From an uncultured Armatimonadetes bacterium (GTDB lineage: Bacteria; Armatimonadota; UBA5829; DTJY01), in NCBI GenBank assembly GCA_963717145.1, contig OY970325.1, positions 4,288,001 to 4,352,000 of the forward strand: a DNA stretch of 64,000 nt, read 5' to 3'. Positions 16,034 through 53,122 of the stretch are shown here, in pieces. Within the stretch, counting starts at the first letter, position 1, and every line of letters starts with the position of its first letter. The notes beneath the pieces were generated by a model that saw only the letters and a list, made by a program, of their open reading frames with translations, searched no databases and was not told where the DNA came from. The translations under genes were made by a program, and so were the position numbers.

Positions 16034-16207
16034 GGGTGCATTTGCGCACACTGGGCCAGCCTCTCGTTATGCCACCAGAGTGGCTACTCGAGGAGAACGG
16101 TTGGGTGGTCTGCCAAGGTTCCCAAGCCCCAACCGTCTAGTCTCTAGTAGGTTTGTCTGGTAACCATAACGAGAGACGGTCGCCACCCACTGAACTCGAA
16201 TGCACCC
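16034..16207. mobile_element. MITE (GGGTGCATT...AATGCACCC ends) carrying a family C hairpin doublet
   Basis: ~22-bp imperfect TIRs; flanking 9-mers ATCACCAGC / CTCACCAGC (8/9 match). Confidence 0.7.
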
Positions 16208-23353: not shown

Positions 23354-23465
23354 ACCGTCAGTCCTGAGTAGCCGGTGAATGACGGCGTAACGAAGGACGG
23401 CCTTGGGTGGCAAAGAGGCCGTCCTTCGTTACGCCGTCATTCACCGGCTACTCAGGACTGACGGT
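23354..23465. repeat. Palindromic doublet family D, copy 1
   Basis: CCGTCAGTCCTGAGT...CGAAGGACGG / CCGTCCTTCG...ACTCAGGACTGACGG; other copies at 24575-24688 and 53008-53122. Confidence 0.92.
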
Positions 23466-24574: not shown

Positions 24575-24688
24575 CCGTGAGTCCTGAGTGCGCCGGTGAA
24601 TGACGGCGTGTATCGAAGGACGGCTCGGTGCACCCAAGGCCGTCCTTCGATACACGCCGTCATTCACCGGCGCACTCAGGACTGACGG
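24575..24688. repeat. Palindromic doublet family D, copy 2
   Basis: As copy 1, with variants mirrored in both arms. Confidence 0.92.
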
Positions 24689-29522: not shown

Positions 29523-29727
29523 GGGTGCATTTCCACAGAGTGGGTCAGCCTCTCGTTATGCCACCAGAGTGGCTACTCGAGGAGAACGGTTGGGGGGTCT
29601 GCCAGTGTCCCAAGCCCCTTTGGGTGGTCTGCCGTGGGTCCATGGCCCAGAACCGTCTAGTCTCGAGTAGGTTTCTCTGCGAACCAGAACGAGAGACGGT
29701 CGCCACCCACTCCACTCGAATGCACCC
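29523..29727. mobile_element. MITE (GGGTGCATT...AATGCACCC ends) carrying a family C doublet, second copy
   Basis: Same ends and interior as 16034-16207; flanking 9-mers GATCCGGGG / GATCCGGGT (8/9 match). Confidence 0.7.
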
Positions 29728-32501: not shown

Positions 32502-35213
32502 TTACCTCTTTGTTTCAAGTGTGTAGCTCCCAGCGGGCACATGGGCGTTCACCGCTCCGGCGGAGTTGGCGTGGGCCGCCGTGCCGTCAGTGTCGCCGGG
32601 CGCACGGAGTACGAGTGACGCGCCGGGAGGGAGGCCCTTCGCGGTGAGGGTGAACGCCCCGACGGATTGGGTATCGATGGCGAACTGCTTCCCGATCCCA
32701 CGGACGGTGATCTCCACGGACGAGCCGGTGATCCAGATGTCGTAGGGCTTCAGCATGCCGGAACCGATGACGCGGTAGTTCGCCGGGAGTGCGATCGACT
32801 TCGCCTTGAGCGCCTCTTCGTAGGCGTCGCGGTATCGGCCCTGGTCAAGGAGCTTCTGCGCACTCACGAGCAGCGCCCGGAGAACCCTCACCCCCGACCC
32901 CTCTCCCTTCAGAAGGGCGAGGGGAGACGCTGACCCCCCTCGCCCTTCTGAAGGGAGAGGGGTCGGGGGTGAGGGTTCTCCGAGTTCGTCGATCAGGTTG
33001 AGGGTGTCCCTGCGCCAGGTGATGAGGAGGCTCTCCATGCGGCGGCGATACATCTTCGGCGTCGGCTGAGCGAGCATCCGGGCGATAGGCTTCCAGCTCT
33101 CCGGAGTGCCCTGGTTCGTATGGTGAGAGAACCGGCAGCCGTTCTCATACATGCCGCAGAGGTTCGGGATGAACCTGTAGGCATTGTTGTCGCCGTGGCT
33201 CTCGTAGTCGGAGCACGCTGCCCTGCCGAGTTCACGGGCGCGAAGATACGGCTCCGGTCCGCCGCCTAGCCCGACTCCCGCCTCGGGGTAGACCGCCTGC
33301 TCCCAGATCGGATGGAAGCGGTCATCGAGCGGGTAGCCCTTTCCGCCGACCCAGTAGACGTAGTTGCTCGCCCCACGATCATCCTTGGGGAATTCGATTC
33401 TGTCACCCTCGACGACGATTGCCTCCTTGCGGAGGTTCTGCCGCATCGTGTTGGAGATCATCTGGTTGAAGCGCGTCGGGTTCAGATGCAGCCACATCTT
33501 CTCGCGCTCATCGAGGCCGTCCGCCGGGTCGAGGTTCACCCCATCGCGGGCCGCGTCCTGGATGACCGACCAGTTGAAATCCATGAGCATATCAAGCCTG
33601 GGCACGCCGCTATTGACGCGGCCATAGCCGTCCTCGAAGACATCGACGATCTTCGTCCAGTAGCAGGGCTCGTCCTCGCCGATCATGCCGAGGAGGTTGC
33701 CGCCCATGCCGGCCTGCTCCATCCTGAGCAGCCAGGGATCGAGCTTGCGAACGGCATCCGCGATGCCATTCGACCGCGCCTCGTTCAGCACCGGGTTGTT
33801 CATCGTTAGCCACGGAACGCTCGACCAGTGGTTCGGCGTCGTGAGACCGTAGTGGACATCGTACCAGCCCGGCTTGCACGAGTCCATGTATTCTTTCAGG
33901 CCCGGGTCGTCGTAGTTGTCGAACTTGCTGTATGCGATCTGCTGGTACTCGATCGCGCGGAAGGTCTTTCCCTTGCCGTCGGAGGTGCCGAGCGGCGAGA
34001 ACGACCAGGTGGTCGGGAAGCCGGGCACGAATGGGACGTTCTTCTCCAGGACGAGCTTACCGAGCCCATCGGCGAGCGTCTGCATCTGGTCAGGCCCGCG
34101 CTGGAGGTATGCGAAGTCGACCGCGATCCCGATCGAGTCGCGCGCACCGGCCTCGTCGAAAACCTTGATCCACCGGTCGATCATGGCGGTATCCTTCACG
34201 GGGTCGAGCCGGGGGAACCTTGGGCAGATCACCATCGGCAGCATGAAGCGGCTCTCTTCGCAGTACATGTCGAAGTCCGAGTAGGCCCGGAGCGACCGGA
34301 TGCGCATCCCGTAGCCGGACGTGTCCCGGAATGTGATCTTTGCGGTGGACTTGCCGGTCGGGGGGACATCGACGAAGTAGGTCATCAGGCCGGGCCCGTC
34401 ATCGACGAAATCCCTGAGATGGACCGACTTGCCGTCGACCAGGACGCGGTAGAGGGTGCGGTCTCCGTTGCGGGCCTCGTCGTTGACCTCCTGGACCTCG
34501 AGCGTCCACATGCCGGTCGCCGGGACCTTGACCTGGTAGCTGATCTCCCTCGGCTTGAACGCCGGCACGGGAGAGGGTGGGGCATAGACCGCGAACTCCT
34601 GGATCCTACGGTAGATCGCCTGGTGCTTCGGGCCGTTGATGCAGCGCATTCGGAGCTTGCTGGCGGTCAGGTTGAGGCCGGGGAGGACGATGAGTGGCCC
34701 CTTGTTCCCTCTGATCCGCGCGATCGGGTGCTCGGTGTCCCAGGCGGATCCATCCCAGCGGAGGAGGTCGAAATCGCTGAGGGCATAGCTCGCCCACGTC
34801 TTGATCATCACCTTGCCGATGCGCGTCGGAAGGCCGAAATCAAGGTCCCAGGTGGACTCCTTCTCGTCCGAGGCGTCGTTCGTCCACGTGCCGTCCGCGC
34901 CGTCGAGCGGCCCCCAGACGTCGTATCCCGCGGATGTCGTGCCGGCGGTGGGACGCGGATAGCCCTCCTTCGCGAGGTTGAGGGCGAGGTTCTTGGGCTC
35001 GGGATTGATCGCGGGCGTCGTCCGGCAGAGGTAGAACTCGCTCCGCAGGCCGATGCTCCCGCCGCACTTCTCGATCTTCGATCCGAACTCCTTGACCTTG
35101 TGCGCCTTCTCCGACGCCGGATCCGAGGTCAGGACATAGTCGGTCTGCCCCGCCCCGAAGGCATGGGTGCTGAGCATCAGCATGGCAAGGAAGAGAAGAG
35201 TCCTGGGGAACAT
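32502..35213 (-). CDS. Large secreted hypothetical protein with discoidin-like domain and in-frame palindrome insertion
   Basis: Signal peptide; NLA...W.LDFG.P..I..V discoidin-like pattern; insertion at 32878-32982. Confidence 0.65.
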   Translation of the reverse strand: MFPRTLLFLAMLMLSTHAFGAGQTDYVLTSDPASEKAHKVKEFGSKIEKCGGSIGLRSEFYLCRTTPAINPEPKNLALNLAKEGYPRPTAGTTSAGYDVWGPLDGADGTWTNDASDEKESTWDLDFGLPTRIGKVMIKTWASYALSDFDLLRWDGSAWDTEHPIARIRGNKGPLIVLPGLNLTASKLRMRCINGPKHQAIYRRIQEFAVYAPPSPVPAFKPREISYQVKVPATGMWTLEVQEVNDEARNGDRTLYRVLVDGKSVHLRDFVDDGPGLMTYFVDVPPTGKSTAKITFRDTSGYGMRIRSLRAYSDFDMYCEESRFMLPMVICPRFPRLDPVKDTAMIDRWIKVFDEAGARDSIGIAVDFAYLQRGPDQMQTLADGLGKLVLEKNVPFVPGFPTTWSFSPLGTSDGKGKTFRAIEYQQIAYSKFDNYDDPGLKEYMDSCKPGWYDVHYGLTTPNHWSSVPWLTMNNPVLNEARSNGIADAVRKLDPWLLRMEQAGMGGNLLGMIGEDEPCYWTKIVDVFEDGYGRVNSGVPRLDMLMDFNWSVIQDAARDGVNLDPADGLDEREKMWLHLNPTRFNQMISNTMRQNLRKEAIVVEGDRIEFPKDDRGASNYVYWVGGKGYPLDDRFHPIWEQAVYPEAGVGLGGGPEPYLRARELGRAACSDYESHGDNNAYRFIPNLCGMYENGCRFSHHTNQGTPESWKPIARMLAQPTPKMYRRRMESLLITWRRDTLNLIDELGEPSPPTPLPSEGRGGSASPLALLKGEGSGVRVLRALLVSAQKLLDQGRYRDAYEEALKAKSIALPANYRVIGSGMLKPYDIWITGSSVEITVRGIGKQFAIDTQSVGAFTLTAKGLPPGASLVLRAPGDTDGTAAHANSAGAVNAHVPAGSYTLETKR
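32878..32982. repeat. Palindrome family F variant, in-frame within CDS
   Basis: 47-bp perfect arms at 32878-32924 / 32936-32982; related single arm at 59327-59363. Confidence 0.9.
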
Positions 35214-35288
35214 GTCATCACCGGTTTCTTAGATTGGTCTGTCTGCGGTATGTTCGGTCAGTCCCTCGGTATGTCCTGCGGACGGCCT

Positions 35289-35475
35289 GCCTCTCGTTAT
35301 GCCACCAGAGTGGCTACTCGAGGAGATCGGTCTGTCTCTTTCCGGGCTGCCCAGCCCCAACCGATCTCCTCGAGTAGCCACTCTGGTGGCATAACGAGAG
35401 GCCAGACGGGTTTGACCCTGCGCACAGCCCCAACCGATCTCCTCGAGTAGCCACTCTGGTGGCATAACGAGAGGC
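35289..35475. repeat. Three family C units downstream of the GIY-YIG gene
   Basis: GCCTCTCGTTATGCCACCAGAGTGGCTACTCGAGGAGATCGGT at 35289-35331, inverted copies at 35360-35402 and 35433-35475. Confidence 0.95.
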
Positions 35476-35477
35476 CG

Positions 35478-35822
35478 TCACACCTGCGCATCACCACCGC
35501 CGAAGCGCTGCGCCTTGTGCTTCTCGAACTCGTCCCAGTCCTTCTTCTTCGCTGCGGCTGAGACTGCGCAGAAGTCACCACGCACGAGCGCGGCTTTCTT
35601 CGCCTGACTCCACTTCTTCACCCTCAGTTCGGCCAGCTTGGCTTCTTCGCGCGTGGGCAAGGCTTCAGACCACACCAGTTCGACGGGCCTTCTGATGGTA
35701 GTGTAAGCACACTTGCCGCCTGCCTGGTGCTCAGCAAACCGGTTTTCCAGGTCATCGGTGTGGCCCACGTAGTAGGTGCCATCGGCACAGAGCAGCATGT
35801 AGACAAAGAACGGTTTGGGCAT
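35478..35822 (-). CDS. Stand-alone GIY-YIG nuclease (UPF0213/YhbQ-like)
   Basis: FVYML.CADGTYYVGHT.DL..R..EHQ.G, YT..RRPV.LV.SE, A...E..VK.WS.AKK.AL; GGAGA RBS. Confidence 0.92.
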   Translation of the reverse strand: MPKPFFVYMLLCADGTYYVGHTDDLENRFAEHQAGGKCAYTTIRRPVELVWSEALPTREEAKLAELRVKKWSQAKKAALVRGDFCAVSAAAKKKDWDEFEKHKAQRFGGGDAQV

Positions 35823-35846
35823 GTCCTGTCTCCATAGGTTGGGTTG

Positions 35847-35963
35847 GCCTCTCGTTATGCCACCAGAGTGGCTACTCGAGGAGATCGGTTCTTTTCTTGC
35901 CGGGCTAGCCAGACCCGTCTAGCCTCGAGTAGGTTTCTCTGGAAACCATAGCGAGAGGCGGTC
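35847..35963. repeat. Family C doublet (arm A + arm B) upstream of the GIY-YIG gene
   Basis: Arm A at 35847-35889, variant inverted arm B at 35915-35963. Confidence 0.9.
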
Positions 35964-35967
35964 AGAT

Positions 35968-36808
35968 CTAGCCCATCTTCCGGCAGCGGGCGATGTAGTG
36001 GTAGACCAGCTTGCCTGTCACGGCCTCGACCTCGAGCGCGTGGGAGAGAAGCTCACGCAGCTCGTCCAGCTTGAAGCGGAAGAAGTAGATGCCGCCCTCG
36101 TGCGCTCCCTCCTTCTCGCCGAAGAGCCGCGTCAGGATCGAATGCTGGTATGCCGATATCACGAGCCGCTCGCCACCCTTGAGCACGCGCGCAAGCTCAT
36201 TGACCGCCGACCTCCGGCTCTCGTGCGTCGGTATATGCTCGAGCACCTGGCAGCTCACCACGCGGTCGAAGCTCTCCGATCTGAGTGGCAGACGGCAGAT
36301 GTCGGCCTGGATCAGATCGACGTTTCGAATTCCCGCGCGTCTGAGCTTGGCCTTGCACCTGCAGAGTGACTCCCAACTGAAATCGACCGAAACCGAGCCG
36401 GCTGCACTTCGACGCGAAACTGCGGGTCATGCGCCCGGTCCCGCATCCGGCTTCGAGGAGGCGATCTTTGCCTGATAACCTAAGCTGACGAAGGGTGACC
36501 GGTATCTCCAGCAGGCCAAACAGGTTGAGGTACCACATGCGTTCGTAGTCCTTGACCTGGGAGTCGCGGGCGCGCATCTCGGTACGTTTGCGGGAGACTG
36601 CATGGTCGCCGGAATCGTGGGAGGAGCACAACTCTGAGGGCAGCATGCGGACGATGCCCTTCTCGATCGGGTATTCGCGGTGGCACTCGGAACAGGTGAG
36701 CGCACCTGAGACGACCTCGTCCATTCCGGCGAGGCGGTTCGCGTGCAGGGTCAGCTCCGACTCGCATCCGGCCGGGCAACTCAGTGAAGGGAGGATCGAT
36801 GGATTCAT
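35968..36808 (-). pseudogene. Trm112-like + class I SAM methyltransferase, frameshifted near 36393
   Basis: L.CP.C...L.C..C.REYPI..GI then LLEAGCGTG; continues in another frame as VDFSWESL...QADICRLP...FDRVVSCQVLEHI; may be a sequencing indel. Confidence 0.75.
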
Positions 36809-36853
36809 GACGACATTACCATACCGGAAAACGGCCTCTCATGCAAGACCGGT

Positions 36854-36976
36854 GTTCGTGCGGATTTGCAATCCAGCACGCATTGGCAAAGTGGGAACTG
36901 TGATCCGGTCGCAAGCAGACTGGGCATCACAGATGCCGGTTTGCCCTCGGGTGCTGGATTACAAATCCGCACCAAC
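36854..36976. repeat. REP-like imperfect inverted doublet
   Basis: GTTCGTGCGGATTTGCAATCCAGCAC (36854-36879) / GTGCTGGATTACAAATCCGCACCAAC (36951-36976). Confidence 0.75.
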
Positions 36977-36999
36977 GTCCTCTGTCATTCGACGCGAGA

Positions 37000-37944
37000 T
37001 CACTTTGCTTTCGGTTTCAGATGCTTCTCGAGGAACTTGTCGATCTTGTCATCCACATCGGGACGAGGCGGCCAGCCGTGCTTTCCGTCCTTCACGAGGT
37101 AGAAGTCCGACTCGACGCCCGCCTTCCTGAGGACCTTGTTGAGCAGCTCGCCCTGACTCGCAGGCGTCAACGGATCCAGGCCGCCGTGGAAGATGTAGAA
37201 CGGCGCATCGTCTTTCGATGCATAGGTCGTCGGGCTGGCTTTGCGGCACAGCTCCGGGTGCTCGAAGTACTTGACGCCGAGAAGGTGCGATATCGACTCC
37301 TTGCCATCAAGAGGCAGGAAGCGGGCAGTTGACTTCCCGGCCTTTGCCAGTTCATAGATAGCCAGGAAGTCGGTCATGCCGTAGTACTCGACGACTGCCT
37401 GGACGCGGCTCGACTCCGCGGCCCATCCGCCGTCGCCCTCGAACTCCTTGATGCCGCCGGTGACGCCGAGCATAGCGACGAGATTGCCGCCCGCCGAGCC
37501 GCCCCAGACGCCGATGCGGTCGGGATCGAGGTTGTACTCCTTCGCATGGGCTCGGAGAAACCTGATCGCGCACTTGCAGTCCTGGAGTTGCGCCGGGAAG
37601 CGCGCTTCGTAGGCGAACCGGTAGTCGATCGTGATGCCGACGTAGCCTTGCTTCACAAATCGTTCCAACCGCTTGTAGCCATCGGTCCTGCTGCCCGAAA
37701 CGAAGCCGCCGCCGTGGATCCACACCAGGACCGGCATCGGGTTCTTCGGCAGTTTCTTGAGCCGGAGGATATCCAGCCTGTGCTTGACGTTTCCGTCGGG
37801 GCTGTATGCGATGTCCTTGATCAGTTCCATGTCGTCCGGCGCCTTGAACTCGGGCTTCGGCGCGGGCTCGGGCGCGGCCTCTTCAGCCGCGGAGAGAGCC
37901 GCCGCCAGTCCGAGGATCGCCAGGACCAGAATAAGCTTGATCAT
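37000..37944 (-). CDS. Secreted alpha/beta hydrolase (HSL-type esterase), paralog 3
   Basis: HGGGF, GGSAGG, D.L, H-W; signal peptide. Confidence 0.9.
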   Translation of the reverse strand: MIKLILVLAILGLAAALSAAEEAAPEPAPKPEFKAPDDMELIKDIAYSPDGNVKHRLDILRLKKLPKNPMPVLVWIHGGGFVSGSRTDGYKRLERFVKQGYVGITIDYRFAYEARFPAQLQDCKCAIRFLRAHAKEYNLDPDRIGVWGGSAGGNLVAMLGVTGGIKEFEGDGGWAAESSRVQAVVEYYGMTDFLAIYELAKAGKSTARFLPLDGKESISHLLGVKYFEHPELCRKASPTTYASKDDAPFYIFHGGLDPLTPASQGELLNKVLRKAGVESDFYLVKDGKHGWPPRPDVDDKIDKFLEKHLKPKAK

Positions 37945-38885
37945 TTCAGTTTGCTTCCCTTCCCAAGATGCTTTTCGAAGAACTCCACGACCGGCTCGCC
38001 CAGATCGGGACGCCCGGGGAAACTGTGACCGATATCCTTGATGATCTGCAAGGTAGAATCGACACCAGCCCTATTGAGCGCTTCATGGAACGCCACGCTC
38101 TGATCGAGCGGAACGGTGTCGTCCTTGTCGCCGTGCATGATCAGAAACGGCGGAGCACCCTTCTTGACGTAGGTGATCGGGCTTGCCCTCTTGCATGCCT
38201 CCGGATTCTCCCAGATTACGCCGCCGACGAGTGCCGAGAGCCGTTCGGCGATGTCGCCCGTCACCCACGTCTCCTTTGTCGCACCACGAGCTTTCTCTTC
38301 CATGGCGGTCTTGTAGATGTCCATCCGGCCGAACCAGTCGCAGACGGCCTGCACCCGGCTCGACTCCTTCGCCCAGCCGCCCTTGCCCTCGAACTCCCTC
38401 ACGCCGCCGGTCACTCCGAGGAGGGCGACGAGAGTGCCGCCCGCCGATCCGCCCCATGCTCCGATGTGACCAGGATCGGCGTTGTATTCCTTCGCATGAG
38501 CGCGCACCCATCGCACCGCGCACTTGCAGTCCTCGATCTGGGCCGGGAAGATCGCCTCGCCGCTGAGCCGGTAGTCGATCGTGACGCAGAAGAATCCGCG
38601 CTGGGCCAGCGGTATCAGACGCCGAATGCCGGCGCCCTTGTTCCCGGACCGGAAGCCGCCGCCGTGAACGAAGATGACCACAGGCATAGGGTTCTTCAGC
38701 CGGACCGTAGGGCGCACGATGTCGAGCTTGAGGGATATATCGCCGCCCTTGCCGTACTCGATGTCGTGGATGACCTCCACGTCGGACGGGATAACCAGTT
38801 CCGGCTTCGGCGCAGGTTCCGCCGCCAATGTGCCGGCAGTCATCAGAATGGCAATCAGGGCGCAGCAGACGGTCAGTGTTGTCAT
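37941..38885 (-). CDS. Secreted alpha/beta hydrolase (HSL-type esterase), paralog 2
   Basis: HGGGF, GGSAGG, HGDKD.TVP, GHSF. Confidence 0.9.
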   Translation of the reverse strand: MTTLTVCCALIAILMTAGTLAAEPAPKPELVIPSDVEVIHDIEYGKGGDISLKLDIVRPTVRLKNPMPVVIFVHGGGFRSGNKGAGIRRLIPLAQRGFFCVTIDYRLSGEAIFPAQIEDCKCAVRWVRAHAKEYNADPGHIGAWGGSAGGTLVALLGVTGGVREFEGKGGWAKESSRVQAVCDWFGRMDIYKTAMEEKARGATKETWVTGDIAERLSALVGGVIWENPEACKRASPITYVKKGAPPFLIMHGDKDDTVPLDQSVAFHEALNRAGVDSTLQIIKDIGHSFPGRPDLGEPVVEFFEKHLGKGSKLK

Positions 38886-39799
38886 TTCTGTTTGTTCACT
38901 TTGCGCAGATGCTTCTCGAAGAACTCCACGACGGGCTTATCCGCGTTGTACTTTGGGCCGAAGCCGTGCCCCGCGCCCTCCAGTATCTTCAGCGTGGCAT
39001 CGACTCCCACCTTCTTGAGGGCGTCGTAGAAGACCTGGCTCTGGCTCAACGGGACGAGCGGGTCCTGGTCGCCGTGCATGATAAGGAACGGGGGATCGTC
39101 CTTGCTGACATATGTGATGGGGCTCGCCTTCCTGCAGACATCGGGCTTCTCCCAGAACTTGCCGCCGACGAGCAGCGAGATCGGGTCGGTCGCGCCGAGT
39201 TTTGCGATCTGATCCTCGGTCATGCCGGCCTTTCTCGCGTCCTCGGCGATCTTGAGGAAGTCGGTCGGGCCGAACCAGTCGCAGACAGCCTGCACCTTGC
39301 TCGACTCCTTCGGGTAGCCACCCTTGCCTTCGAGGTCCTTCGCGCCGCCGGACGTGCCGAGTAGCGCGACGAGATGCCCGCCGGCCGAGCCGCCCCAGAC
39401 TCCGATGCGTATCGGATCGGCGTTGTATTCCTTGGCATGAGCGCGCATCCAGCGGATCGCGCACTTGCAGTCCTCGATCTGGGCGGGGAAGATCGCGACA
39501 TCGGTGAGCCGGTAGTTGATCGTGGCGCAGAAGTAGCCCTTTTGTGCGAGCGGGATCAGGTGCTGAGTGCCGCCCTGCTTGTCGCCGCCGCTCCATCCAC
39601 CGCCGTGGACGAAGATGACGACCGGCATCGGGTCCTTCGGCGTGACCTTTGGGCGCACGATGTCGAGCTTGAGGGACACCCCGCCGCCCTTCCCGTACTC
39701 GACGTCGCGGATGACTTCGACGTCTGACGGAATCTGTGCGAGCGCGGGGATGCACATCGCGAGGACGATCAGTATGGCAGTGATGATGCGCTTTCTCAT
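38882..39799 (-). CDS. Secreted alpha/beta hydrolase (HSL-type esterase), paralog 1
   Basis: HGGGW, GGSAGGH, HGDQDPLVP, GHGF. Confidence 0.9.
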   Translation of the reverse strand: MRKRIITAILIVLAMCIPALAQIPSDVEVIRDVEYGKGGGVSLKLDIVRPKVTPKDPMPVVIFVHGGGWSGGDKQGGTQHLIPLAQKGYFCATINYRLTDVAIFPAQIEDCKCAIRWMRAHAKEYNADPIRIGVWGGSAGGHLVALLGTSGGAKDLEGKGGYPKESSKVQAVCDWFGPTDFLKIAEDARKAGMTEDQIAKLGATDPISLLVGGKFWEKPDVCRKASPITYVSKDDPPFLIMHGDQDPLVPLSQSQVFYDALKKVGVDATLKILEGAGHGFGPKYNADKPVVEFFEKHLRKVNKQK

Positions 39800-41399: not shown

Positions 41400-41477
41400 G
41401 GTTTCTCCTTCGGAGCGCGGAATCAGGCTACTGTAAACATTGTAGGGTATGAGCCGACAAGCAGTCAACTGATCAGC

Positions 41478-41929
41478 GGTGCATTCGAGTTCAGCAGGTC
41501 AGCCTCTCGTTATGCCACGAGAGTGGCTACTCGAGGAGATCGGTTGGGTGGCCTGCGCAGGGTTGGTCAGCCTCTCGATATGCCACGAGAGTGGCTACTC
41601 GAGGAGATCGGTCGGGTGGTCTGCGCAGGGTTGGTCAGCCTCTCGTTATGCCACCAGAGTGGCTACTCGAGGAGATCGGTTGGGTGGCCTGCGCAGGGTT
41701 GGTCAGCCTCTCGATATGCCACGAGAGTGGCGACTCGAGGAGATCGGTTGGGTGGCCTGCGCAGGGTTGGTCAGCCTCTCGATATGCCACGAGAGTGGCT
41801 ACTCGAGGAGATCGGTTGGGTGGCCTGCGCAGGGTTGGTCAGCCTCTCGTTATGCCACCAGAGTGGCTACTCGAAGTAGCCACTCTGGTGGCATAACGAG
41901 AGGCTAACCCACGCTGCGCAAATGCGACC
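41478..41929. repeat. Family C tandem array: five 68-bp units plus terminal fold-back, inside degenerate MITE ends
   Basis: Units start at 41497, 41565, 41633, 41701, 41769 and 41837; 31-bp perfect hairpin at 41841-41905. Confidence 0.95.
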
Positions 41930-53007: not shown

Positions 53008-53122
53008 ACCGTCAGTCCTGAGTTCGCCGGTGAATGACGGCGTGTAACGAAGGACGGCTCGGTGCAGCAAGGCCGTCCTTCGTTACACGCCGTCATTCAC
53101 CGGCGAACTCAGGACTGACGGT
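53008..53122. repeat. Palindromic doublet family D, copy 3
   Basis: As copies 1 and 2, with mirrored variants. Confidence 0.92.

Follow-up and report, generated by a model that had tools for sequence, protein, structure and literature searches.

Single-domain GIY-YIG proteins of the Ssn family (cd10448) are encoded by genes that are flanked by hairpin repeats (Chenal 2025, PMC11893778). As set out in the text of that paper, the genes are small, the flanking repeats, termed NTS or SRM, are dispersed hairpins, and SsnA cleaves only one strand of its repeat, as single-stranded DNA (ssDNA), a few nucleotides upstream. The mutations Y6A, Y17A, and E64A abolish cutting, and the Discussion likens the Ssn architecture to IS200/IS605 and to REP-associated transposases. 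In the accessible part of a 2026 preprint, SsnA loci serve only as a benchmark. CGTC repeats without a dedicated transposase are described in the accessible text of Di Nocera et al. (2013; PMC3733652). For the ISKra4 family of insertion sequences (IS), Guerillot et al. (2014; PMC3942029) report 8-9-bp duplications and, for several members, insertion upstream of promoters; the word MITE was not found in the main text of that paper.

The locus described here had been predicted, from its letters alone, to hold a GIY-YIG nuclease that recognizes, nicks, and spreads the repeat around its gene, a system for which no formal description was known. As Chenal 2025 describes GIY-YIG genes with dispersed hairpins, ssDNA cleavage, and the analogy to REP repeats and their RAYT transposases (PMC11893778), the kind of system is not undescribed and has been known since 2025. 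Our literature search, in which subscription journals were thinly covered, found no paper on hairpin-flanked UPF0213-type genes, and the group of proteins and the repeat examined below appear undescribed in the literature searched.

A small GIY-YIG gene paired with a hairpin

The window, which is the whole stretch of 64,000 nucleotides that was analyzed, lies in the 5.37-Mb single-contig genome of an uncultured Armatimonadetes bacterium (Table 1). The claim that one repeat tightly brackets a 114-aa GIY-YIG gene stands, as four exact copies of a 43-base core surround the gene, the nearest 2 bp from its stop codon and 24 bp from its start codon. Copies without the gene are present near 16059 and 29548, the seven copies in the array at 41.5 kb comprise five full and two partial ones, and the count of 13 arm A and three arm B copies in the window holds. 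Allowing up to three mismatches, we found 11 matches to the core in the window versus none in 100 shuffles. Genome-wide there are 43 matches at up to five mismatches; ten are exact, and four of these are at the gene.

Table 1. Nuclease gene, hairpin arms, and repeat-carrying elements in the window
Feature	Position	Strand	Remarks
MITE: ISKra4-like terminal inverted repeats around type I doublet	16034..16207		9-bp flanking repeat, 1 mismatch; TTGAC 16 bp from one end
Type II doublet (REPIN-like, - +)	23355..23464		second subfamily of hairpin
Type II doublet	24575..24688		second subfamily of hairpin
MITE: ISKra4-like terminal inverted repeats around type I doublet	29523..29727		9-bp flanking repeat, 1 mismatch; TTGAC 16 bp from one end
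Outer downstream doublet: two inverted arm A copies	35289..35402		35289-35331 (+), 35360-35402 (-), exact cores
Inner downstream arm A	35433..35475	(-)	exact core; 2 bp from stop; inverted relative to upstream inner arm
Stand-alone GIY-YIG nuclease gene, 114 aa	35478..35822	(-)	ORF list and Pfam
Inner upstream hairpin arm, type I arm A	35847..35889	(+)	exact core; 24 bp from start codon
Outer upstream arm, type I arm B	about 35915..35959	(-)	related arm
Decayed MITE, arm A tandemly expanded, 68-bp period	41477..41929		degenerate IS-like ends both sides; TTGAC 16 bp past right end; no target duplication seen
Type II doublet	53009..53121		second subfamily of hairpin

Type I loci are inverted doublets in 28 of 33 cases. 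Eleven pairs of neighboring arms lie 150-2500 bp apart in the genome, and the inward (- +), gene-bracketing arrangement occurs only at the nuclease gene. Read on the gene-sense strand, the inner upstream arm consists of a CCG tag, a 5-bp stem, GAG, an inner hairpin, CGA, and the other side of the stem. On just one of the two strands, the facing GAG and CGA could pair as tandem sheared G.A; ViennaRNA, which does not model such pairs, folds the window's arm in a register other than the covarying stem. Sheared G.A pairing on one strand would give the hairpin a strand polarity like that of the SsnA substrate. In Rfam, no family reached its gathering score for the hairpin; the only matches were microRNA-type hairpins far below that score. 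No sigma-70 promoter-like site was found at 35100-37100.

Two features of the neighborhood bear mention. Arm B adjoins a Trm112-like and methyltransferase-like gene (35968-36808, minus strand) that is apparently split into two overlapping frames of 203 and 97 aa and is absent from the orthologous site in two other genomes, G001 and G006. Beyond it, 37000-39799 (minus strand) holds three tandem paralogous hydrolase-like genes of 305-314 aa; G001 and G006 have paralogues of these at the orthologous site.

The sole domain of the 114-aa window protein is a Pfam GIY-YIG match over residues 5-76 (E 3e-17). An alignment of 76 homologues shows R28 and H32 to be invariant and conservation of at least 90% at Y8, Y18, and E65. 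The window protein is a small single-domain GIY-YIG protein with intact catalytic residues. A close homologue with 72% identity is labeled Armatimonadetes bacterium. Since the fold predicted from the single sequence was poor (pLDDT 62), we used a model built from 76 sequences (pLDDT 79), whose top fold matches were the UPF0213 proteins 1zg2 and 1ywl, followed by Slx1. The same two proteins were the best matches in a sequence search of the PDB (E 2e-13 and 1e-12, respectively). Nine queries against the genome, in which two of the three PF01541 matches were identified, found no further small GIY-YIG gene, whether intact or decayed.

To learn whether the pairing of gene and hairpin extends beyond this genome is to ask about relatives, and we used 80 homologue loci kept from 233 confirmed relatives; most are from Sphingomonadales, and such kin are not independent. 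Our hairpin descriptor comprised a stem, TCG, a variable insert, CTC, a stem, and a CGG tail. An earlier loose pattern, which matched in 60 of 61 relatives, was discarded as noisy and replaced by a stricter one. Because the descriptors were designed after such gene-flanking copies had been viewed, positives are partly circular, and the weight of the evidence is carried by the controls that are not: near versus far sequence, Ssn-type loci, and gene-negative genomes.

A hairpin lies within about 330 bp of the gene at 76 of the 80 loci, in keeping with the flank enrichment that the original prediction expected of homologues, and 56 of the 80 have the canonical inverted bracket. Descriptor matches numbered 186 in 50 kb near the gene versus 14 in 119 kb far from it, and the window-type descriptor matched at 2/20 Ssn-type loci. 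In 41 distinct stems, scored without a pairing requirement, 114 of the 164 positions pair; shuffled stems averaged 64 and never exceeded 83.

Copy number was likewise higher in genomes with the gene, the second outcome that had been anticipated. In the five genomes that have a close homologue, the strict pattern occurs 217, 152, 183, 173, and 182 times; it occurs at most seven times in the other genomes of the phylum (199/201). Ten genomes with more distant homologues have one to four strict-pattern matches each, and in six of eight such genomes examined the core lies beside the gene with other tags. In a hand tally of 121 Sphingomonadales, which as kin are not independent, at least ten hairpin copies occur in 19 of 21 gene-positive versus 11 of 100 gene-negative genomes. 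The two remaining gene-positive genomes have one and eight copies, and the 11 repeat-holding gene-negative ones have 10-144 each. Where there are at least 100 copies, the gene is present in 11 of 12 genomes; the maximum in this order is 393 matches per genome. The window-type gene itself is patchy, occurring in 10 of 201 genomes of the phylum and in 21 of the 121 Sphingomonadales. Genome G006 encodes two paralogues, each with its own stem type beside it. The pairing of gene and hairpin is real, robust, and family-wide.

Several loci showed further peculiarities. In many sphingomonads the GIY-YIG frame continues through the downstream hairpin into the next gene, yielding apparent fusions of 310-435 aa (L019, L022-L025, L027, L029, L073, L075, L080, and L087-L089); to judge by their motifs, the fusion partners resemble RNA-modifying enzymes. 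Elsewhere, arms are nested within arms, with a second TCG..CTC unit in the loop of the first (L022, L032, L034, L035, L062, and L073). L100 (G004:C114) is another small GIY-YIG gene of a different kind, with tRNA-like repeats on both sides.

Placement among small GIY-YIG proteins

We placed the window protein relative to Ssn and to the YhbQ/YazA proteins using, as stand-ins for SsnA, relatives' proteins whose genes have SRM or CGTC/TGTC-tagged flanks (Ssn-type proteins). In L110, the NTS-flanked stand-in, the repeat is one position off the published NTS. A first tree contained 70 rows, namely every second one of the 80 loci with four added, 28 of the 30 loci from relatives, and YhbQ; the program dropped one row, and the bootstrap had not settled. 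A second, unrooted tree was built from 53 hand-picked rows and 100 columns. Both trees group the Ssn-type stand-ins with 100/100 support, at the end of a branch 1.2-1.3 changes per site long, and leave the window protein outside this clade. In the 100-column unrooted tree, a 94/89 branch separates 40 window-type and Ssn-type proteins from 13 of the YhbQ/YazA type.

UPF0213, the group of the best solved relatives, is one that we take to be linked to cd10456. Neither name occurs in the text or in 13 of the 14 supplements of Chenal 2025, in which Fig. 5a may label the group (PMC11893778). The window protein matches the NTS-flanked L110 protein with E 2.4e-7 (database size 1.3 million), weaker than the 1e-10 criterion of that paper. 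By BLAST, E. coli YhbQ (50 bits) and Ssn-type proteins (42-54 bits) are equally close to it.

The repeats were compared in the same way. The published SRM pattern has no match at 35100-36100 and matches at one of 80 and none of six homologue loci. This pattern is narrow, as only 4 of 20 Ssn-type loci match it. The stem-GAG..CGA-stem core, with a 5-bp stem and either a loop or an inner hairpin between GAG and CGA, was sought on the gene-sense strand upstream of the gene and is present at 71 of the 80 homologue loci, 8 of the 20 Ssn-type loci, and 3 of 74 far controls. We infer from this resemblance that the repeats of the window-type and Ssn-type groups probably share a common ancestry.

The narrowness of the SRM pattern leaves room for a reading in which the window protein is a divergent Ssn member and its repeat an SRM variant that the published pattern misses. 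Equal size and architecture, alignment of Y8, Y18, and E65 with the corresponding Ssn-type residues, and a GAG..CGA core and orientation common to 8/20 Ssn-type loci are all consistent with it. However, the 100/100 clade on its long branch excludes the window protein, the NP.W.DL C-terminus of the Ssn-type rows is missing, the match to L110 is weaker than 1e-10, and the best solved relatives are UPF0213 proteins. We regard this reading as improbable.

Those same UPF0213 matches would suit a housekeeping, YhbQ/YazA-like repair nuclease whose hairpins are adjacent by chance or serve as RNA stabilizers, and the sphingomonad frames that run through the hairpin into the next gene suggest that some copies may be domesticated. 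Yet the YhbQ/YazA-type genes lie across the tree, where the hairpin core is missing from 11 of the 12 loci scanned and matches once, weakly, at the other. The six YhbQ/YazA-type genes with annotation near yazA or yhbQ are in tight operons, whereas the window-type gene is patchy, and no Rfam family matches its hairpin at the gathering score. In the 100-column unrooted tree, the window protein does not group with YhbQ/YazA, and its gene has the flanking hairpins that a housekeeping UPF0213 gene would lack. A housekeeping role seems to us highly unlikely.

Dispersed copies of the repeat

The dispersed type I doublets are contained in larger elements, 165-229 bp long and bounded by terminal inverted repeats, which the original prediction had not seen. 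At least one IS-like end, defined as at least 15 of 22 IS-end bases matching, was found at 30 of 31 non-gene type I loci (random control, 3/300). A 9-bp repeat with no more than one mismatch flanks 18 of the 22 elements for which both ends were found; among random controls the figure was 3 of 20,000. TTGAC at a distance of 14-18 bp from one end accompanies 15 of the 22 MITEs and 5 of the 10 IS copies, compared with 2.75% of random sites, for which a wider interval was used. The genome contains a resident IS of 1433 bp with ends related to those of the MITEs, in ten paired copies that differ by at most one base; seven of the ten have a target duplication. Its transposase scores 260 bits with the ISKra4 model NF033572 (cut-off 205). 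A first assignment to ISLre2, read from PF06782, was rejected because the NCBIfam ISLre2 score was 99 bits, below the cut-off of 200. Genome G006 contains a few copies of the same MITE ends.

Ends, duplications, -35 spacing, and a resident transposase all agree, and the dispersed type I copies are MITEs of an ISKra4-family IS. Upstream arms A and B at the gene form the same A/B doublet that the MITEs carry, and neither IS-like ends nor a duplication were found around the gene cassette, both gene-flanking clusters being without an IS-like end. Transposition of the MITEs by the resident ISKra4 enzyme would follow from the known behavior of the family. Two MITE copies in this genome (G000:C1), at 2240791-2240966 and 2676133-2676308, have an identical 30-base outer flank at one end, part of which also lies beside the IS copy at 1489040; this suggests insertion into a repeated site or rearrangement between copies.

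These elements bear directly on the claim that the GIY-YIG nuclease itself nicks and spreads the repeat family, as a RAYT is thought to do for REPs. For the type I repeat that had been counted, spread by the nuclease is unsupported, since the dispersed copies belong to MITEs that have ISKra4 ends and are bordered by 9-bp duplications. The prediction had allowed that a RAYT or some other transposase might be responsible instead; the ISKra4 MITEs come close to bearing out the second of these, and the first did not hold.

The window also contains a second, larger hairpin subfamily that had gone unseen. Type II, which differs from the subfamily at the nuclease gene, is the most abundant in the genome, with 197 arms at 105 loci. 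Inward doublets in the orientation of the cassette, with a short spacer in place of the gene, make up 85 of the 105. Target duplications around these doublets were not above those in shuffled flanks, and IS-like ends occur at 2 of 105 loci. The type II partner gene is present in genomes G006, G001, G038, and G052 and was not found in the window's genome, where the subfamily is either orphaned or served by the single nuclease. Tandem repeats of 6-7 bases often adjoin type II doublets, for example at genome positions 355633, 389015, 1868042, and 2879616.

A site upstream of a 903-aa gene could be compared among genomes. It is empty in G001, contains one type I doublet and no gene in G006, and in the window's genome (G000) contains the gene with five arms plus the methyltransferase gene; G007 has a different neighbor, and two further genomes lack the marker. 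These three states are compatible with two histories: the gene entered its own doublet, or it was lost.

The type II subfamily is a candidate for nuclease-linked spread. Several observations are consistent with a nuclease that spreads its own repeat: in two lineages the repeat is more abundant where the gene is present; type II doublets show the cassette orientation, no duplication above shuffled flanks, and few IS-like ends; G001 and G052 contain about 180 arms with one and no matches, respectively, to the IS end; and the orthologous site is found empty, with a doublet, and with the gene. Against it are the ISKra4-like ends at nearly all dispersed type I loci and the three-state site, which could instead reflect gene loss and from which the methyltransferase gene is likewise missing in G001 and G006. 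A GIY-YIG hydrolase is not known to have a strand-transfer step; without one, host repair would need to complete any move. We consider spread of the family by the nuclease possible but doubtful.

As for RAYT genes, the genome has seven Y1_Tnp matches, none of them inside the window, as originally stated. A RAYT as the true partner of the hairpins would accord with the four matches that lie 1.8-3.5 kb from an arm and with the REPIN-like form of type II doublets. However, none of the seven is directly flanked by the nuclease repeat, the nearest arm being 1773 bp away, and other repeats, most of them with a GTAG tag, flank the five loci that could be read in frame. Homologous arms, in turn, lie beside GIY-YIG genes at 76/80 loci. 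Because of this distance and these different repeats, the RAYT genes are not the partner of the nuclease hairpins, and we give the opposite reading hardly any credence. At least five RAYT-like genes (G000:C1, L005, and L007-L010), each with its own repeats, coexist with nuclease hairpins and ISKra4 MITEs.

Proposed explanation and comparison with known systems

We favor, and consider probable, an explanation in two layers: an Ssn-like nuclease with its own hairpin, and copying of a captured doublet by an ISKra4-family element. In the first layer, the product of the gene would be a single-domain, Ssn-like GIY-YIG nuclease whose group is sister to the published Ssn clade and which is paired with a hairpin of its own. 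By analogy with SsnA, the enzyme would bind the hairpin only as ssDNA, on the strand that reads CCG tag, stem, GAG..CGA, stem, and would cut a few nucleotides 5′ of it. Such nicks may promote recombination that maintains the cassette and the gene-less doublets. In the second layer, one type I doublet would have been captured between the ends of an ISKra4-family IS to form a MITE of about 175 bp. Acting in trans, the DDE transposase would copy this MITE into sites that lie about 16 bp upstream of -35 boxes, leaving 9-bp duplications. This MITE layer accounts for nearly all dispersed copies of the type I repeat.

A more far-reaching version, which we offer only tentatively and think less likely than not as a whole, is that the GIY-YIG enzyme runs a mobile family in which the cassette is the autonomous form and the gene-less type II doublets are non-autonomous copies that move without target duplications. 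The group would then be far wider than Ssn, with Ssn an inner branch when YhbQ/YazA is the outgroup, and the stem-GAG..CGA-stem hairpin would be the older recognition element. The three site states, seen in three genera, would reflect homing of the gene into its own doublet. A group of that breadth would supply many ssDNA cutters whose specificities are new.

Under the two-layer explanation, the concept introduced for Ssn in 2025 would also cover a second, widespread group of small GIY-YIG proteins, for which a candidate target and its strand are defined. A hint of the size of this group is given by 1371 cluster representatives at E ≤1e-10, a count that includes other groups. An abundant class of palindromic repeats, with up to 393 matches per Sphingomonadales genome, is now tied to a partner gene. 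The locus also carries a caution: the partner gene of a repeat need not be its spreader, as the hairpins in this genome were probably copied, inside MITEs, by a DDE transposase unrelated to the nuclease.

Of the known systems, ISKra4-family (p-MULT 4) elements, as described in the main text of PMC3942029, resemble the MITEs in their 9-bp duplications and in insertion about 16 bp upstream of -35 boxes. The MITEs differ in their cargo, a hairpin doublet of the nuclease's repeat family, and the IS itself has no such hairpin. With REP/REPIN-RAYT systems, as presented in the accessible text of Bertels and Rainey (2011; PMC3116915), the repeat shares inverted doublets, a variable spacer, and long ssDNA hairpin folds, and in both cases the repeat brackets a partner gene. 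Here, however, the partner is a GIY-YIG hydrolase and not an HUH transposase, and there is no GTAG or CGTC tag. The UPF0213/YhbQ/YazA proteins (1zg2, 1ywl) are the nearest solved relatives of the window protein by sequence and fold, but their genes are in operons, without flanking hairpins, and across the 94/89 branch, whereas the window-type gene is patchy.

The Ssn system differs in its 5′ tag, which is CGTC or TGTC compared to CCG plus 2-5 nt in the window group; in addition, the window protein lies outside the Ssn-type clade without the NP.W.DL tail, and its repeat fails the SRM pattern. The likenesses are a single-domain GIY-YIG protein of about 100 aa, a gene flanked on both sides by an oriented, genome-dispersed hairpin, a repeat copy number that tracks gene presence in both systems, catalytic tyrosines and a glutamate that align, and a stem-GAG..CGA-stem core common to one Ssn-type subgroup. 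By analogy, the window protein probably acts like an Ssn nuclease, yet we do not file it as one.
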